Source: Bacteroidota bacterium
GTDB taxonomy: Bacteria; Bacteroidota; Ignavibacteria; UBA10030
Length of the DNA: 64,000 bases
Reading direction: 5' to 3'
NCBI GenBank assembly: GCA_021813905.1
Contig: JAKAJH010000005.1
Span: 26,788-90,787 of the forward strand
The position numbers and the translations under genes are program-made. The notes under the pieces were generated by a model. It ran no database searches and had not been told where the DNA came from. It was given only the letters and a program-made list of their open reading frames with translations. Of the stretch, positions 15,047 to 61,623 are shown in pieces. Every line of letters starts with the position of its first letter. The first letter of the stretch is position 1.

Positions 15047-15859
15047 TTACGCCGGCTTCTTCGCGTAAACCGTGATCGAGTAGATCCCGACCTTGCGTCG
15101 TTTGTATTCGCGGAGCTCTTCGAGCGAGATGTGCTTGAGAAGGATCTCGTTGGGGATGTCGATCTCCCGCTCTTTCTGGATCGTACCATCGGCGAACCCT
15201 GCCTCCGCGATCGTGCGCAGGTACTCGTCGATCTGCTGGGCACCGGCAATGCAGCCGGCGTAGAGCGCGGCGCTGGTCCGGACGTTCTCCGGGAGCTCTC
15301 CCCGCAGGACGATATCGGAGATGCTGAAATGACCGCCCGGCTTCAGAATGCGGAATGTTTCGGCGAAGGCTCGCTTCTTGTTTGGTACGAGGTTCATCAC
15401 GCAGTTGCTGACCACCACGTCGACCGTTCCGGTTTCGACCGGCATCTCCTCGATGTCGCCGAGCCGGAACTCGACGTTCGCGAATCCGAGCTTTGCCGCG
15501 TTCGCGCGTGCTTTCCCGATCATCGCCTCCGTCATGTCGATGCCGATGACCTTCCCGGTCTCTCCGACGATTGACCGGGCCACGAACGCGTCATTTCCTG
15601 CGCCGGAGCCGAGGTCCACGACGGTGTTGCCGGATTTGATCTGCGCGAACTCCGTCGGCAATCCGCAGCCAAGTCCCAGATCGGCGTCCGCCACATACCC
15701 GTTCAGCTTCGTGTAGTCTTCCGCCATCACGGAGAACTCGACGGAAGAGCAGCAATCCGTTCCGCCGCAGCAGGACGATTGGTTCTGCTGTTTTGACTGA
15801 CCGGCGATAGCGCCGTACTTCTCTTTCACCATTTCCTTGACTTCGGAATCGGTCGGCAT
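15047..15859 (-). CDS. arsM: arsenite S-adenosylmethyltransferase
   Basis: N-terminal SSCC..CC, LGLGCGLP, VDLGSGAG, VVSNCV, GCIAGA; directly downstream of arsR. Confidence 0.92.
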   Translation of the reverse strand: MPTDSEVKEMVKEKYGAIAGQSKQQNQSSCCGGTDCCSSVEFSVMAEDYTKLNGYVADADLGLGCGLPTEFAQIKSGNTVVDLGSGAGNDAFVARSIVGETGKVIGIDMTEAMIGKARANAAKLGFANVEFRLGDIEEMPVETGTVDVVVSNCVMNLVPNKKRAFAETFRILKPGGHFSISDIVLRGELPENVRTSAALYAGCIAGAQQIDEYLRTIAEAGFADGTIQKEREIDIPNEILLKHISLEELREYKRRKVGIYSITVYAKKPA

Positions 15860-57149: not shown

Positions 57150-57962
57150 ATGATGAAGTACGATGTCTCAGATTTTCAATCGCAAGTGATCGAGCGGAGC
57201 TTTACGGTGCCCGTGCTGGTCGATTTCTGGGCGGAATGGTGCGGTCCGTGCCGCATCCTCGGACCGACGCTGGAGCGATTGGCCGATGGCGCCAACGGCG
57301 ACTGGGAGCTCGCGAAAGTTGACACGGAGCGCATGCCCGACGTGGCGGCGCGGTACGGCATCCAGAGCATTCCGAACGTGAAGCTGTTTGTGGACGGCAA
57401 GCCGGCCAACGAGTTTGTCGGCGCGCTGCCCGAACCGCAGATCCGGGCCTGGCTGAGCAAGGCGCTTCCGAGCAGGAACCGCCAGCTGGTCGAGCACGCG
57501 GAAGTCCTGCTCGCGCAGGGAAGCACCGCCGAGGCGACCGCGATCCTGAAGGACGTTGTGGCCAAGGAGCCGGCCAACGGACACGCCCACGCCCTGCTCG
57601 CCCGGACGCTTGTCTTCACCGATCCCGCCGCGGCGCTTGTCCACGCGGACGGCGTGAACGACCCGCAATTCTACGAGATCGCGGAAGCGGTGCGGACCAT
57701 GGCGCATTTGGGAGAGATGATGAAGGATGGCGCCGATCTGCCCGACGGCGACGCCACGCGGCTCTACCGTGAGGCGATCGGACTGACCCTGCGCGGGAAT
57801 TTTGACGCGGCGCTTGAGAAGTTCATCGAGGTTATTCGGCTGGACCGGAAGCTGGACGACGACGGCGCCCGCAAGGCGTGCATCGCCATCTTCAAGTTCC
57901 TCGCGGAAGAGCACGAGGTCACGCGGTCATGGCGGAGGGAGTTCAGCAGCGCGTTGTACTGA
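57150..57962 (+). CDS. thioredoxin-TPR co-chaperone (CnoX/YbbN-like)
   Basis: VLVDFWAEWCGPC, IQSIP, C-terminal DDGARK...RREFSSALY. Confidence 0.9.
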   Translation: MMKYDVSDFQSQVIERSFTVPVLVDFWAEWCGPCRILGPTLERLADGANGDWELAKVDTERMPDVAARYGIQSIPNVKLFVDGKPANEFVGALPEPQIRAWLSKALPSRNRQLVEHAEVLLAQGSTAEATAILKDVVAKEPANGHAHALLARTLVFTDPAAALVHADGVNDPQFYEIAEAVRTMAHLGEMMKDGADLPDGDATRLYREAIGLTLRGNFDAALEKFIEVIRLDRKLDDDGARKACIAIFKFLAEEHEVTRSWRREFSSALY

Positions 57963-57997
57963 GATACAGCCCTGCGCGTCGGTAGAACGTACATAAG

Positions 57998-58033
57998 AAA
58001 CGCCGGAAAGACTCTCCGTCCTTCCGGCGTTTT
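57998..58033. terminator. bidirectional terminator
   Basis: AAACGCCGGAA...TTCCGGCGTTTT. Confidence 0.65.
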
Positions 58034-58054
58034 CGGGTACACAAACTGCAGCGA

Positions 58055-59329
58055 TCAGACCATCAAACACACCGTGAACGCCAGCCCGAAGAGCATCGCC
58101 AGGTAGATCGTGTTGACGTTCGCCGTGACCAGATCCCGGCTGTAAAGATGCTTTCGGAAGTACCGGATAATGAAGAATCCGTACACCGCCAGGATCACCA
58201 CCGGCAGAATGAGCCACATGCGCTGGAGCTGGAACGCGAGCGTCATCGACACGCCGACCGCGATCGCGATCGTGAGCGCGTAGATCGTCACCGCATTCTC
58301 CTTGCCGAAGGTCACCACCAGGTGGTTCTTCCCGGTGGAGGCGTCCGCCTCCGCGTCGGGCACCTGATTGATCAGCAGGATGTTCGACGTCAGCAGTCCG
58401 ACCGGCAGCCCGATCAGGAGGCTGACCCAGGAGAACATCCCCGTCACCGTGTAGAAGATCCCGCCGGTCACCAGCGGTCCGAACGTCACTCCGATGGCGA
58501 ATTCGCCCAGTCCGTGCCGGGCCACCAGACGCAGCGGCGGCGCGGTGTAGAAGTATCCGGCGAACGCCCCGGCCAGTCCGAACGCCAGGACGCCCCAGCC
58601 GACGCGGGCCGTCAAAAACACGCCGATGGCCGCGGAAACCGCCAGCAGCGTGGTCGCTACAACCGCCGTTCCGCGCTGGGAGATGAGGCCGAGCTCGATG
58701 GCCCGGCTCCCGCCGCTGTACTTCTGGAAGTAGCTCGCGTTGGCCTGATCCGTGCCGTCCCGCCAGTCAAAGTAGTCGTTGAACACGTTGGCGGACAGAT
58801 GCAGGAGCGCCACGCCGATGGTGGCGAGGATGAAATTGAGCGTCGAAAAGACCGGTCCGGTGATGATCGTTGACGCATAGGCTCCGGCGATGAACGCCGG
58901 GATGACCGAGGCGCTCAGGAACGGCGCCCGCGTGATCACCAGGGCTTCCACGAGGGAGATCCACCACTTCTTTTCCGGCGCGATGCTGTCCTCGATCTCC
59001 GTCGTCACCCCGCAATAGCCGATCTGCTTGCCATCCTTGAAGGTCGGGGTAATGCGGACCTCGGCGTTGAACCGGCCGCCGTCCTTCCGGACGAACACCG
59101 TCCGGCCCCGGAATTCCCCTTCTTCCCGCGCTTTCGTCAGCCACATGCCGACGTTCTGCAGCACGACCCAGCCCGGAGAGAAGAGCGAGACGCGCTTCTT
59201 GCCGATGACCTCGTCCGGGGCGTAGCCGAACAGCTGGACCGCGCCGTCATTGTACGTTTCGATGACCCCTTCCATGTCGCAGGTCACGGTGCTTTTGGCC
59301 TTCCGTGTTCCCGTGCCATTCGCTTGCAT
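58055..59329 (-). CDS. PAS domain fused to MenA/UBIAD1-type UbiA prenyltransferase
   Basis: PAS: CDMEG.I..YN.GA..LFGY..DEVIGK...RKDG..F...V.ITP. Prenyltransferase: TRAPFL, NVFNDYFD...GTD, YTAPP, GLGE, NQVPD..AD...GK. Confidence 0.85.
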   Translation of the reverse strand: MQANGTGTRKAKSTVTCDMEGVIETYNDGAVQLFGYAPDEVIGKKRVSLFSPGWVVLQNVGMWLTKAREEGEFRGRTVFVRKDGGRFNAEVRITPTFKDGKQIGYCGVTTEIEDSIAPEKKWWISLVEALVITRAPFLSASVIPAFIAGAYASTIITGPVFSTLNFILATIGVALLHLSANVFNDYFDWRDGTDQANASYFQKYSGGSRAIELGLISQRGTAVVATTLLAVSAAIGVFLTARVGWGVLAFGLAGAFAGYFYTAPPLRLVARHGLGEFAIGVTFGPLVTGGIFYTVTGMFSWVSLLIGLPVGLLTSNILLINQVPDAEADASTGKNHLVVTFGKENAVTIYALTIAIAVGVSMTLAFQLQRMWLILPVVILAVYGFFIIRYFRKHLYSRDLVTANVNTIYLAMLFGLAFTVCLMV

Positions 59330-59505
59330 ATGCGATCCCTCGTTTGTATATCTGGTGTGAGCTACACAAGTATAACGAATTTTCCGCCGGGAAAATTCCG
59401 GCCAACCAGGCGATTCCGCCCCGTCACCAGCGTTGTTCCGGGGCGGCTACCGGGGTCCCGCCCGGACAGCCTTCGGAACCAAATGCGCCCGCGGGGGGTT
59501 GAACA

Positions 59506-59519
59506 GTTCAAATTCGAAC
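59506..59519. promoter_or_regulatory. candidate MarR operator
   Basis: Near-palindrome GTTCAAATTCGAAC just before the marR ATG; related CTTTAAATTTGAAA at 60006-60019. Confidence 0.45.
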
Positions 59520-59524
59520 ATCCT

Positions 59525-59983
59525 ATGAAGACCACCAAACGCTACGGCCGCAAGGCCGATCTGGCTCTGAGCATGTGGGTCAAGCTGGCCCGCGCGCATG
59601 ACACCTTCGAGCACCGCACGGCCGAGAACATCCGGTCGTTCGGCCTCACGCCGCCCCAATTCGGCGCTCTGGAGTGCCTCGGCCATCTGGGCCCCATGAA
59701 GATCGGCGAGCTGACAAAGAAACAGCTCGTCAGCGGCGGCAACATGACCGTCGTGATCGACAACCTGGAGAAGGACGGCCTCGTGCAGCGCACGGTCAAG
59801 TCCACCGACCGCCGCTCCGTCCAGGTGTCGCTGACCGCCAAGGGCCGGCGCCTGTTCGAGCGCATTTTTGCCGAGCACGCAGCCTATGTTGCACAGCTGG
59901 CTTCCGCACTCACGGAGCAGGAGCAGACCGCGCTCGCGGACCTTCTCCGGAAACTCGGCTGCGCTCTCGCGAAATCCGCCTGA
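59525..59983 (+). CDS. MarR family transcriptional regulator
   Basis: GLTPPQF..L, GNMT.VIDNLEK.GLV.R...DRRS..V.LT.KG. Confidence 0.93.
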   Translation: MKTTKRYGRKADLALSMWVKLARAHDTFEHRTAENIRSFGLTPPQFGALECLGHLGPMKIGELTKKQLVSGGNMTVVIDNLEKDGLVQRTVKSTDRRSVQVSLTAKGRRLFERIFAEHAAYVAQLASALTEQEQTALADLLRKLGCALAKSA

Positions 59984-60058
59984 TTTCGCCCCTTCACCCC
60001 ACTTACTTTAAATTTGAAACTTTCCGGCTGGCCGGGGTGTTCTGATTCCTGAACGCCT

Positions 60059-60685
60059 ATGGAATCGACACACCGACCGCTGCAAGTACTGGGAATTTCC
60101 GGAAGCCTCCGGACCGGCTCCTACAACCGCCTGCTGCTGCGTTCGGCACTGCGCAGTGCCGCAGACGCCGGCGCCCGTGTCCGCGAAGCGGACCTGAAGA
60201 TACTCGATCTCCCCGCGTACGATGAGGACCTCCGCACCGACGGCGAACCGCCGTCCGTGACCATGTTCCGCCGCCTGGTCGCCGATGCGGACGTCATCTT
60301 CATCGCGATGCCCGAATACAACTACTCCGTACCCGGCACGCTCAAGAACGCCATCGACTGGGCATCGCGCAAACCGAATGTGTTTGACGGAAAGACCGCC
60401 GCGATCTTCGGCGCATCGACCGGCCCGTACGGCACCGTCCGCGGTCAGGCGCATCTCCGCCTCATTCTGGGCGCCATGAACGTCTATCTCGTGCCGCAAC
60501 CCCAGGTGCTGGTGCGTTCCGCCGAGCACGCCTTCACACCGGACGGGACGCTCGCCGATGAACGAGCGGCGGAACAGCTGCGCATGCTGATCCAACGCAC
60601 ACTGCAACTCGCACGGGCACTCGACTTCACCCGATCCGCATCCGAATCAGCGCTCATGACGTCCAATACACGGAGGGTTGTATGA
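60059..60685 (+). CDS. NADPH-dependent FMN/quinone reductase (FMN_red, ChrR/YieF-like)
   Basis: GISGSLRTGSYN, PEYNYSVPGTLKNAIDW, GASTG..G..R.Q. Confidence 0.93.
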   Translation: MESTHRPLQVLGISGSLRTGSYNRLLLRSALRSAADAGARVREADLKILDLPAYDEDLRTDGEPPSVTMFRRLVADADVIFIAMPEYNYSVPGTLKNAIDWASRKPNVFDGKTAAIFGASTGPYGTVRGQAHLRLILGAMNVYLVPQPQVLVRSAEHAFTPDGTLADERAAEQLRMLIQRTLQLARALDFTRSASESALMTSNTRRVV

Positions 60686-60978
60686 ACGAATTCATGGTCA
60701 CGATCAACCTCCCGGACGATCCGACGCCGGAATTTTTCTCCATCGTCCCCAGCCACCGGGCCCGCGTCAATGAGCTGATGCAGCAGGGCGTCGTCACCGG
60801 CTACAGCCTCTCCGCCGACCGCCGCATCCTCTGGATGACGATGATGGCAACGGACCAGGAGGAGATCGTAAAAACGCTCGTCACGCTTCCGCTGTACCAC
60901 TGCATGCGGTACACCGTGCAGGAGCTGATGTTCCATAACAGTCCCGTATTCTCCACGCCCCGGTTCTCGGTCAATTGA
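60682..60978 (+). CDS. muconolactone isomerase/YciI-like dimeric alpha-beta barrel protein
   Basis: FMV.I.LP...HRA.VN.L..G....YSLS.DR..LW.....LPL; ATGA overlap with the reductase gene. Confidence 0.65.
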   Translation: MNEFMVTINLPDDPTPEFFSIVPSHRARVNELMQQGVVTGYSLSADRRILWMTMMATDQEEIVKTLVTLPLYHCMRYTVQELMFHNSPVFSTPRFSVN

Positions 60979-61041
60979 CCGCGACGGACGGGCATCACGA
61001 GTTCTTTCACCATCAACCGATCAATCATACAGGAGTTTTCC

Positions 61042-61623
61042 GTGAAACGTATTGCACTGCTTGCGCTGGTCCTTGCGGCGGGATTGTCGTCCCTTCGCGC
61101 CGGCGAATCCCAATGGTCCATGGACCGTTCCCATTCATCCATCACCTTCAGCATCCGCCACATGGTCGTCTCGGAAGTGGTGGGATCGTTCAAGAACTTC
61201 ACCGTTTCGCTCGACGCTACGAAAGACGACTTCTCCGATGCCCGCGTCGCCGGGACCATCGAGGTCGGAAGTATCAGCACGGATAACGACCGGCGGGACA
61301 CTCACCTCAAGTCGGATGATTTCTTCAACGCCGCGAAGTATCCGGAGATCCGGTTCACGAGCACGGAATTCCGCAAGGTGGGCGAGAATAAGTACCAGAT
61401 CGCCGGCAACCTGACCATCCGCGATGTGACGAAGCCGGTGGTGTTCGACGCGGTATATGGAGGATCCGTCAAGGCGTGGGGCAAGACGGTCGCCGCCTGG
61501 AAGGCCACAACCACGATCGACCGGTTCGACTACAACCTGAAGTGGGACAAAGCCCTCGAGACGGGCGGTCTGATCGCCGGGCGCGACGTCACGATCACGC
61601 TGACCCTCGAATTCGACAAGTAA
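61042..61623 (+). CDS. YceI family polyisoprenoid-binding protein
   Basis: Signal peptide; W.MD..HS.I.F.IRH, SI.T....RD.HL.S.DFF, G.LTIR.VT, IDR.DY. Confidence 0.93.
   Translation: MKRIALLALVLAAGLSSLRAGESQWSMDRSHSSITFSIRHMVVSEVVGSFKNFTVSLDATKDDFSDARVAGTIEVGSISTDNDRRDTHLKSDDFFNAAKYPEIRFTSTEFRKVGENKYQIAGNLTIRDVTKPVVFDAVYGGSVKAWGKTVAAWKATTTIDRFDYNLKWDKALETGGLIAGRDVTITLTLEFDK

Follow-up and report, generated by a model that had tools for sequence, protein, structure and literature searches.

The window analysed here, a 64,000-nucleotide stretch of contig JAKAJH010000005.1 from a member of the class Ignavibacteria (Bacteroidota), carries a gene whose product joins an N-terminal PAS domain to an intramembrane enzyme of the UbiA superfamily (hereafter, PAS-UbiA). 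The fusion is confirmed as real. The reading that we favour, at a probability of roughly 0.45, is that PAS-UbiA attaches a prenyl chain to a naphthoquinol-type head group and carries its own ligand-binding module, which is of neither the flavin nor the haem type. Both domains look functional; what the enzyme prenylates, what the PAS binds and whether this domain controls the enzyme or only assists it are inferences. Databases already list the protein under automatic names ('UbiA family prenyltransferase', 'PAS domain S-box protein'). In agreement with the original prediction, which was made from the sequence alone and knew of no characterised example, no paper on a PAS-UbiA or PAS-MenA fusion was found in a literature search that left most subscription journals outside its reach. 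PAS-UbiA thus represents a widespread but so far uncharacterised form of a familiar kind of enzyme.

Architecture and authenticity of the fusion

In the window's list of open reading frames (ORFs), the gene is a single ATG-initiated frame of 424 amino acids at 58055..59329 on the minus strand, exactly where a fusion in one frame had been predicted. Its GC content at third codon positions (GC3) is 0.88 in a window of 62% GC, which is typical of real genes nearby. The parts of the gene, with the evidence for each, are as follows.

58055..59329, minus strand: complete coding sequence of the PAS-UbiA fusion, stop codon at 58055-58057 (ORF list, Pfam PAS_9 and UbiA, GC3, contigs of the DNA runs)
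58994..59296, minus strand: PAS domain, residues 12-112, from the A-beta strand (STVTCD) to the I-beta strand (IGYCGVTTEI) (Pfam/NCBIfam, alignment, AlphaFold2, Foldseek)
59279-59281, minus strand: codon of the nearly invariant Cys17, within the PAS domain (alignment of 98 homologues)
59012-59014, minus strand: codon of the invariant Cys106, within the PAS domain (alignment of 98 homologues)
58928..58993, minus strand: linker and pre-membrane helix, residues 113-134, leading from the PAS I-beta strand to the first transmembrane helix (TM1) (AlphaFold2; mean column conservation 0.61)
58058..58927, minus strand: intramembrane prenyltransferase domain of the UbiA fold, residues 135-424; nine transmembrane helices are predicted (Pfam, AlphaFold2, Foldseek, match in the Protein Data Bank (PDB))
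58748..58789, minus strand: first Asp-rich motif, at the end of TM2, N181-V-F-N184-D185-Y-F-D188-...-G192-T193-D194 (alignment and UBIAD1 motif)
58328..58369, minus strand: second Asp-rich motif, after TM6, N321-Q-V-P324-D325-...-D329-...-G333-K334 (alignment and UBIAD1 motif)

Three Pfam models place a PAS domain in residues 14-113: PAS_9 over residues 14-105 (39.9 bits, cutoff 27), PAS_4 (30.3 versus 23.1) and PAS (25.9 versus 22.6). The NCBIfam PAS S-box model TIGR00229 scores 41.2 against a cutoff of 22.9, and these profile scores are matched by a five-stranded PAS fold. The Pfam UbiA model (PF01040) covers residues 143-395 with 106 bits against a cutoff of 34.2, and membership of the UbiA superfamily is further borne out by the two Asp-rich motifs after TM2 and TM6 and by a nine-helix intramembrane fold. 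The motifs from which the architecture had been predicted are all present in the translation (QLFGYAPDEVIGKK, VRKDGGRFNAEVRITP, TCD, YCG, NVFNDYFDWRDGTD and NQVPDAEADASTGKN). Only PAS and UbiA models match in Pfam and NCBIfam; no kinase, GGDEF, EAL, HAMP, cyclase or DNA-binding output domain was found with them, as had also been predicted for kinase and cyclase outputs.

The gene could conceivably be an artefact, two neighbouring genes for a PAS and a MenA-like protein that a recent frameshift or a mistake in sequencing or assembly had run together, and four database relatives without a PAS domain are the single observation in favour of this. However, in a search of 5.8 billion proteins, 116 of the 120 best homologues listed hold both PF13426 and PF01040 in about 420 amino acids, and the PAS-less four are pieces of 270-301 amino acids encoded by short contigs (923-3959 bp); a starting Met is missing from three of these pieces. 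They look like truncated gene calls, and separate PAS and MenA-like forms were rejected on that ground. When prokaryotic species were scanned by one genome each, 297 genomes proved to encode a relative. Contigs assembled from all four DNA runs, which stem from one study, may represent the source sample and so are not independent, cover positions 57900-59500 with the identical ORF, no differing letter and no gap. AlphaFold2 moreover returns one compact body (predicted template modelling score (pTM) 0.86). With homologue architecture, run contigs and model all opposed to it, an artefact was rejected as extremely improbable, and of the findings that had been named as able to overturn the fusion, neither separate genes in relatives nor a stop, here looked for in the run contigs, was seen.

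The family is broadly distributed. The best 80 of the 297 loci are mostly labelled Ignavibacteria, Kapaibacteria, Chlorobiota, Saprospiraceae, Phaeodactylibacter or Lewinellaceae, and two carriers among them, Phaeodactylibacter xiamenensis KD52 and P. luteus KCTC 42180, are in culture. Among 1.84 billion cluster representatives searched, 17196 matched at E<=1e-3, and the stricter limit of E<=1e-30 was reached by 269. From the best 150 of these, 28 representatives that align over their full length were picked, and a hidden Markov model built from the PAS region of the PAS-UbiA family matches 27 of them, down to 30-31% identity. Several clusters of the ESM Atlas are automatically named PAS/UbiA proteins. 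No longer, Rosetta-stone fusion (a weak kind of evidence) turned up in a search for such forms: the PAS part matched an unrelated multi-PAS kinase and nothing else.

Variations on the architecture were also seen among the relatives. One protein of 551 amino acids (P0124), 45% identical to the window protein, has a pair of EF-hands ahead of its PAS and UbiA domains, and from its sequence would be the same fusion with a calcium-binding module added in front. Other UbiA-domain relatives bear different soluble N-terminal domains of about 150-210 amino acids, which fall into at least three unrelated groups:

Nine members (P0153, P0158, P0173, P0182, P0187, P0193, P0221, P0243, P0264): weak PNPOx-like match (E 1e-4) in P0158 and P0173, no Pfam match in the other seven
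Four members (P0188, P0213, P0240, P0260): no Pfam match in the N-terminal domain
Four members (P0199, P0211, P0235, P0248): no Pfam match in the N-terminal domain

The repeated addition of a cytoplasmic small-molecule-binding module to this clade of MenA-like enzymes appears to be a recurring theme.

Conservation and predicted structure

Across the 98 aligned homologues the residues N181, N184, D185, D188, G192, T193 and D194 of the first motif region and N321, P324, D325, D329 and K334 of the second are invariant, and the two Asp-rich motifs (N184-D185-x-x-D188 and D325-x-x-x-D329) align to those of UBIAD1. A block in the cap loop, Y200-F201...G206-G207-S208-R209, is likewise invariant and is specific to the family, which has an eight-residue insertion in this loop relative to UBIAD1. 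The PAS domain contributes a long series of invariant residues, comprising E20, G21, F34, Y36, E40, R46-V47-S48, F50-S51-P52-G53, L57, W63 and L64 in its N-terminal part and F79, G84, A89, T96, G104, C106, G107 and T109 in its C-terminal part; C17 is conserved in at least 90% of the sequences. The PAS domain, with a mean pairwise identity of 67%, is on a par with the catalytic core (64%), whereas the C-terminal helices reach 38%. Conservation this high is unusual for a sensor PAS, and the domain is an integral, obligate part of the enzyme.

The AlphaFold2 model, calculated on the homologue alignment, is a single confident body with a mean predicted local distance difference test score (pLDDT) of 90.4, and the areas of uncertainty are limited to the N-terminal tail and the cap loop (residues 191-208). 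The PAS domain is built from strands 12-18, 22-26, 73-80, 86-98 and 101-111 together with helices, at pLDDT above 88; a helix spanning residues 122-133 follows, and nine long helices are found after residue 135. The pTM of 0.86 implies a fixed arrangement of the PAS relative to the membrane domain.

Structural homologues were identified with Foldseek. The membrane part returned AfUbiA (4tq4), digeranylgeranylglyceryl phosphate (DGGGP) synthase (6m31/7bpu), UBIAD1 (8djk, TM-score 0.78) and ApUbiA (4od4/4od5), with target-normalised TM-scores of 0.70-0.78 for 4tq4, 8djk, 4od4 and 6m31. UBIAD1 is also the best PDB match of the membrane domain by sequence (E 1.7e-12). The closest structure to the PAS part is 3lyx (root-mean-square deviation 1.3 Å, TM-score 0.81), followed by Aer, NifL, EcDOS and light-oxygen-voltage (LOV) domains. 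No solved chain was found by Foldseek to match both parts. Known structures of UbiA enzymes have the Asp-rich loops that follow TM2 and TM6 on the cytoplasmic side, where the start of TM1 should then lie as well; this suggests that the PAS lies in the cytoplasm beside the entrance to the active site.

The PAS pocket

The best match of the PAS domain among solved sequences is the PAS of Aer, which binds flavin adenine dinucleotide (FAD) (8dik, E 7.7e-6 over 96 residues), followed by 3lyx, a plant MAP3K PAS, LOV domains, FixL and NifL. PAS-UbiA shares the fold of Aer, NifL and LOV domains (8dik, 2gj3) and has in common with them a Trp at W63 and a Gly at G21, but its output is the fused membrane enzyme and not a HAMP, kinase or transcription module. 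The haem-binding PAS domains of FixL and EcDOS carry a proximal His on the F-alpha helix. Residues 1-135 of the window protein contain no His, which excludes a haem site of the FixL/DOS type, and haem was rejected as a cofactor. In LOV domains an adduct-forming Cys contacts the flavin; PAS-UbiA lacks this Cys at the E-alpha position. For Aer, the structural report describes H53 stacking on the isoalloxazine ring, N85 hydrogen bonding to O4/N3 and R115 positioned over N5 (PMC9668731). On an alignment that assumes an inferred seven-residue offset between chain index and native numbering, these residues correspond to R46, F79 and T109, all invariant and chemically different, and a flavin cofactor was rejected because of these replacements. 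The redox- or O2-sensing cofactors that had been proposed for the PAS are consequently not favoured.

The pocket positions are thus fixed yet re-specified, and many of them are aromatic or hydrophobic (F34, F50, W63, F79, F87). A quinone, quinol or isoprenoid may be the ligand, which we infer rather than report as a result. Two conserved Cys residues (C17, C106) in a cytoplasmic PAS on a membrane protein recall the quinone-responsive PAS of the ArcB type with its redox-active Cys in general arrangement; PAS-UbiA differs in having no kinase output. In Aer, L20 is described as pairing with R115 in the same report (PMC9668731), and transfer of this strand register would point C17 into the pocket and C106 onto the outer face of the sheet. 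An intramolecular C17-C106 disulfide is therefore unlikely.

It is also conceivable that the enzyme is a quinone prenyltransferase whose PAS holds no ligand and serves as a structural cap or dimerisation module for stability, with no sensing or allostery. The loss of the Aer flavin contacts and the lack of a His for haem would fit such a role, as would the description of the closest structure, 3lyx, merely as a structural-genomics PAS domain, and the strong conservation could reflect a protein-protein interface instead of a pocket. Against this, the positions that line the pocket in Aer (R46, F79, T109, W63 and G21 here) are invariant, which would be unexpected for a surface interface alone, and the presence of other small-molecule-binding N-terminal domains on related MenA-like enzymes, including the weakly PNPOx-like ones, suggests a recurring need. 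We regard a ligand-free PAS as quite improbable.

Quinone genes in the window's genome

The genome to which the window belongs (G000; 3.08 Mb in 90 contigs, 100% complete) holds six UbiA-superfamily matches. They comprise PAS-UbiA, a PAS-less MenA-like gene, an enzyme of the geranylgeranylglyceryl phosphate (GGGP) type that accounts for two matches and is split across two contig ends, an unassigned UbiA protein and a decaprenylphosphoryl-5-phosphoribose (DPPR) synthase; neither canonical MenA nor MqnP is among them. The suggested check for another menA in this genome returned a paralogue but no canonical enzyme. MenB is not found over its cutoff, MqnC has no match at all, and there is one PF02621 match of 100 bits. 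The methyltransferase MenG, in contrast to these absences, is present with 254 bits against a cutoff of 158. As neither known pathway for the naphthoquinone head group is present, the head group would have to be salvaged or supplied by an unknown route.

Across 121 evenly sampled genomes of the class (G000 and 120 others), the PAS-less MenA-like paralogue occurs only in G000 and G143, the two carriers of PAS-UbiA in their family. It is 37% identical to the UbiA domain of the window protein and in a quick tree groups with two PAS-fused representatives (Shimodaira-Hasegawa-like approximate likelihood ratio test (SH-aLRT) 98). At its locus (L001, G000 C49:18163-21870) it directly follows a degenerate UbiA-like gene that has no Pfam match at E<=0.001 (ORFs L001:509-1411:+ and L001:1432-2331:+), and an ORF resembling FAD-dependent desaturases lies opposite the paralogue. 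Directly after the MenG/UbiE gene of G000 (L120:2203-3123:+ in L120, C76:39977-43645), and on its strand, comes an Amidohydro_2 (PF04909) gene. Amidohydro_2 includes non-oxidative decarboxylases of aromatic acids, and the gene might have a bearing on an unconventional way of making quinones. Heme O synthase (CyoE/CtaB) is missing from the UbiA-superfamily matches of G000; the carriers G143, G121, G091, G140 and G149 all have one.

Near-complete genomes of other carriers are in a similar situation. MenG is present in all five that were tested (G143 and four genomes of family f21) and MqnC in none. In two of the f21 genomes, G121, which is a single contig, and G149, the UbiA-type proteins are heme O synthase, the fusion, a PRK08238-type enzyme and one weak match. 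As such genomes keep MenG with neither canonical MenA nor MqnP, PAS-UbiA is the obvious candidate for adding the prenyl tail. The predicted link to quinone synthesis is accordingly plausible, PAS-UbiA being the only MenA-like enzyme, or one of two, beside MenG in G000 and several near-complete carriers.

In the class sample, carriage of the fusion is also associated with missing head-group pathways. PAS-UbiA occurs in eight of the 121 genomes, namely G000, one of the seven others in its family and all six in f21. MenB is found in 31 genomes and a MqnC/MqnE-type match (E<=1e-60) in 57, in sets that do not overlap, and canonical MenA in 60. None of the eight carriers has MenB or MqnC/E, versus 88 of the 113 non-carriers (naive Fisher p 1.5e-5); within the window's family both carriers lack these genes and five of six non-carriers have them. 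In all, 33 of the 121 genomes are devoid of both MenB and a MqnC/MqnE-type gene. Among the non-carriers without head-group genes, canonical MenA is kept in at least 20 of 25 (all eight in f7, all four in each of f10 and f18, and the single genomes in f11, f15, f19 and f24). This points to widespread salvage of head groups or sharing of precursors, or to an undiscovered menaquinone pathway in the class. The passages found in a paper on Melioribacter (PMC5492636) contained nothing relevant.

Relation to MenA and the question of the acceptor

The best NCBIfam matches of the membrane domain are all models of 1,4-dihydroxy-2-naphthoate (DHNA) polyprenyltransferases. PAS-UbiA shares with MenA (TIGR00751, NF00475x), its best-scoring named family, the NDxxD first motif, the DxxxD second motif, the nine-helix UbiA fold and co-occurrence with MenG. 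It differs from MenA in the added PAS domain, in the eight-residue cap-loop insertion and in its hosts, which with one exception among 50 carriers lack MenB and hence DHNA synthesis. These 50 genomes were chosen from the 80 loci, with long contigs favoured. With MenB over cutoff in only one of them and not in G000, DHNA is unlikely to be made by the hosts, which speaks against the original prediction as it was worded. Relative to MqnP (TIGR01475, NF041584-6), PAS-UbiA belongs to the same superfamily and is found in the same genomes in 14 of the 50 carriers, but lies in another clade and scores 22 bits versus 420.

Sequence identity to the window protein is 28-32% for the canonical MenA proteins of fellow carriers and 25% for MqnP (E 3e-5). 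A quick tree built from 80 UbiA domains, with MqnP as outgroup, sets the fusion apart from the canonical MenA of carriers. The window protein falls in a fully supported clade of ten fused representatives, nested in a mostly fused clade (21 of 26 rows, SH-aLRT 90). Seven of the 28 fused rows are scattered among unfused ones, so that a single origin of the fusion is neither shown nor excluded.

Several observations weigh against a role for PAS-UbiA as the menaquinone prenyltransferase of its hosts. Every MenA equivalog model scores it below cutoff (TIGR00751 68.7 versus 102.15, NF004751 119.6 versus 264, NF004749 115.3 versus 277), so it is not canonical MenA and the predicted MenA-type assignment stands only in the sense of a MenA-like enzyme with intact Asp-rich motifs; the MqnP models are also far from their cutoffs (NF041584 22.2 versus 420, TIGR01475 23.3 versus 180.8). 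About half of the carriers encode another candidate for the step. An MqnP-type enzyme is found over cutoff in 14 of the 50, and in fragments in one more; these 15 are also the genomes with strong MqnA/MqnD matches. The 14 include P. xiamenensis, P. luteus and also G040, which shares 76% identity with the window in its PAS-UbiA. Canonical MenA is found over cutoff in 11, with no overlap with the MqnP set, which leaves 24 carriers with neither, among them one genome at 100.6 bits, just below the MenA cutoff. Two f21 genomes (G091 and G140) have a menG-menA pair in addition to the fusion. Coexistence with MenA or MqnP in so many carriers means that the fusion is not simply 'the' MenA. Its patchy distribution (8 of 121 genomes in the class, one of seven other members of the family) fits an accessory function, and as the carriers of the class sample fall in only two families, their association with head-group loss is overstated. 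Many of the carrier genomes are metagenome-assembled, and absences in them are provisional. Finally, when 839 neighbouring ORFs from the 80 loci and the window were clustered, no conserved gene neighbourhood linked the fusion to quinone genes.

These points give weight to a different explanation, in which PAS-UbiA acts on another aromatic acceptor. Its product would be an additional, specialised lipid, either a prenylated quinone or a phenolic one, and recognition or delivery of the acceptor would fall to the PAS. The MenA or MqnP already present in 25 of 50 carriers, the patchy distribution and the sub-threshold scores against all equivalogs of both families make a distinct acceptor a serious rival. 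The family's own eight-residue cap-loop insertion, with invariant Y200-F201 and G206-G207-S208-R209, and the separation from the carriers' canonical MenA (28-32% identity) in the tree are in keeping with it. It would, however, leave G000, G143, G121 and G149, which have MenG but neither canonical MenA nor MqnP, with a methyltransferase and no quinone prenyltransferase, and biosynthetic genes for another acceptor were found near the fusion in none of the 80 loci. On balance we judge a different acceptor to be somewhat unlikely. A role as the prenyltransferase of the futalosine route was rejected, as carriers with that route have their own MqnP and G000 has no MqnC. As a separate observation, P. 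luteus (L103) and P. xiamenensis (L105) encode an enzyme of the homogentisate phytyltransferase type (341 and 347 bits versus 226), a tocopherol- or plastoquinone-type prenyltransferase, here in a genus of Bacteroidota.

Proposed mechanism

According to the naphthoquinol prenyltransferase reading, PAS-UbiA would be a single-polypeptide aromatic prenyltransferase of the MenA clade, working within the membrane, with a dedicated cytoplasmic N-terminal PAS packed against the enzyme. The two Asp-rich motifs would bind Mg2+ and a polyprenyl diphosphate, and the prenyl chain would be transferred to a naphthoquinol-type head group to give a (demethyl)menaquinone-like lipoquinone, which MenG could then methylate. 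In G000 the head group would be taken up or made by an unknown route that is neither of the known pathways. The PAS, on the same cytoplasmic side as the opening of the active site, would bind a small hydrophobic or aromatic ligand, most plausibly the quinone or quinol head group or the product, and ligand binding may gate or assist catalysis.

UBIAD1 provides a precedent for such a scheme. This eukaryotic menadiol prenyltransferase makes menaquinone-4 (MK-4) from a salvaged head group, so that, as may be the case in G000, the head group is not synthesised by the organism. Among solved structures UBIAD1 (8djk) comes nearest in sequence and is one of the nearest in fold; it is about 19% identical, has no PAS and no ND pair in its first motif, and is eukaryotic. 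A more specific proposal is that PAS-UbiA acts as a bacterial 're-tailing' enzyme of the UBIAD1 type, completing menaquinone from head groups that are scavenged from the community or made by a third route, with the PAS pocket (C17, R46, F79, T109, W63) capturing or sensing quinone or quinol to gate transfer. In this detailed form we consider the proposal unlikely. Lactiplantibacillus plantarum is reported to use exogenous quinones because it is unable to make its own (10.1101/2023.03.13.532228), and another study reports feedback inhibition of MenD by DHNA (PMC9835592).

Genomic context

The neighbours of the PAS-UbiA gene, a thioredoxin-tetratricopeptide repeat (TPR) gene downstream and a MarR-led set upstream, are on the opposite strand, and the gene appears on that account to be transcribed alone. 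One further feature belongs to this context:

59330..59524, no strand assigned: divergent intergenic region of 195 bp between the PAS-UbiA start and the probable ATG of a MarR-family gene at 59525 (sequence; Pfam match of MarR)

The MarR start was read from the sequence. The region is presumed to hold the promoters of both genes; a promoter scan of 59330..59524 gave no sigma-70-type site, the scan being uninformative for this phylum. The divergent genes at 59324-61623 on the plus strand encode, by Pfam, a MarR regulator, an NADPH-dependent flavin mononucleotide (FMN) reductase, a muconolactone-isomerase-like protein and a YceI-family protein, a combination that presumably resembles operons for the response to quinone or aromatic stress. 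The MarR-FMN reductase-YceI set is not kept beside the fusion at other loci.

The commonest neighbours across loci are PurH (28 loci), Mur-ligase/FolC-like proteins (26), S1 (24), Lon-like proteins (21), HgmA (19) and Dxr (16), and the only neighbour common to the window and other loci is an EamA transporter (six loci). A conserved operon was rejected, the frequent neighbours being housekeeping genes that follow lineage synteny. In seven Phaeodactylibacter-type loci a gene of the TspO/MBR family, a tetrapyrrole-binding membrane protein, lies directly upstream on the same strand (for example L043:7441-7920:+). Elsewhere in the window an arsenite methyltransferase is encoded at 15050-15859 on the minus strand (NF008823, 356.5 bits versus a cutoff of 263) and a bacilliredoxin of the BrxA/BrxB family at 752-1204 on the minus strand. 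The DNA runs that contain the whole stretch are labelled mine drainage metagenome; of metatranscriptome runs, only two contained 4-6% of the sequence words sampled.

Implications

PAS domains normally signal to kinases, cyclases or transcription factors, and here one that is conserved as tightly as the active site is joined directly to an intramembrane biosynthetic enzyme. If the PAS binds a quinone or a redox signal, the fusion would allow the supply of respiratory quinone to be controlled directly at the protein level, with no intervening signalling pathway; if re-tailing holds true, PAS-UbiA would be a one-component membrane biosynthetic enzyme gated by substrate or redox state. The wider puzzle is that about a quarter of the genomes sampled from the class (33 of 121) lack both known routes to the naphthoquinone head group yet retain a prenyltransferase of the MenA type, and that MenG is also kept in all six of them tested for it (G000, G143 and four of f21). 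The cultured Phaeodactylibacter carriers make the question testable, and PAS-UbiA may show how some bacteria control or salvage electron carriers like vitamin K2.

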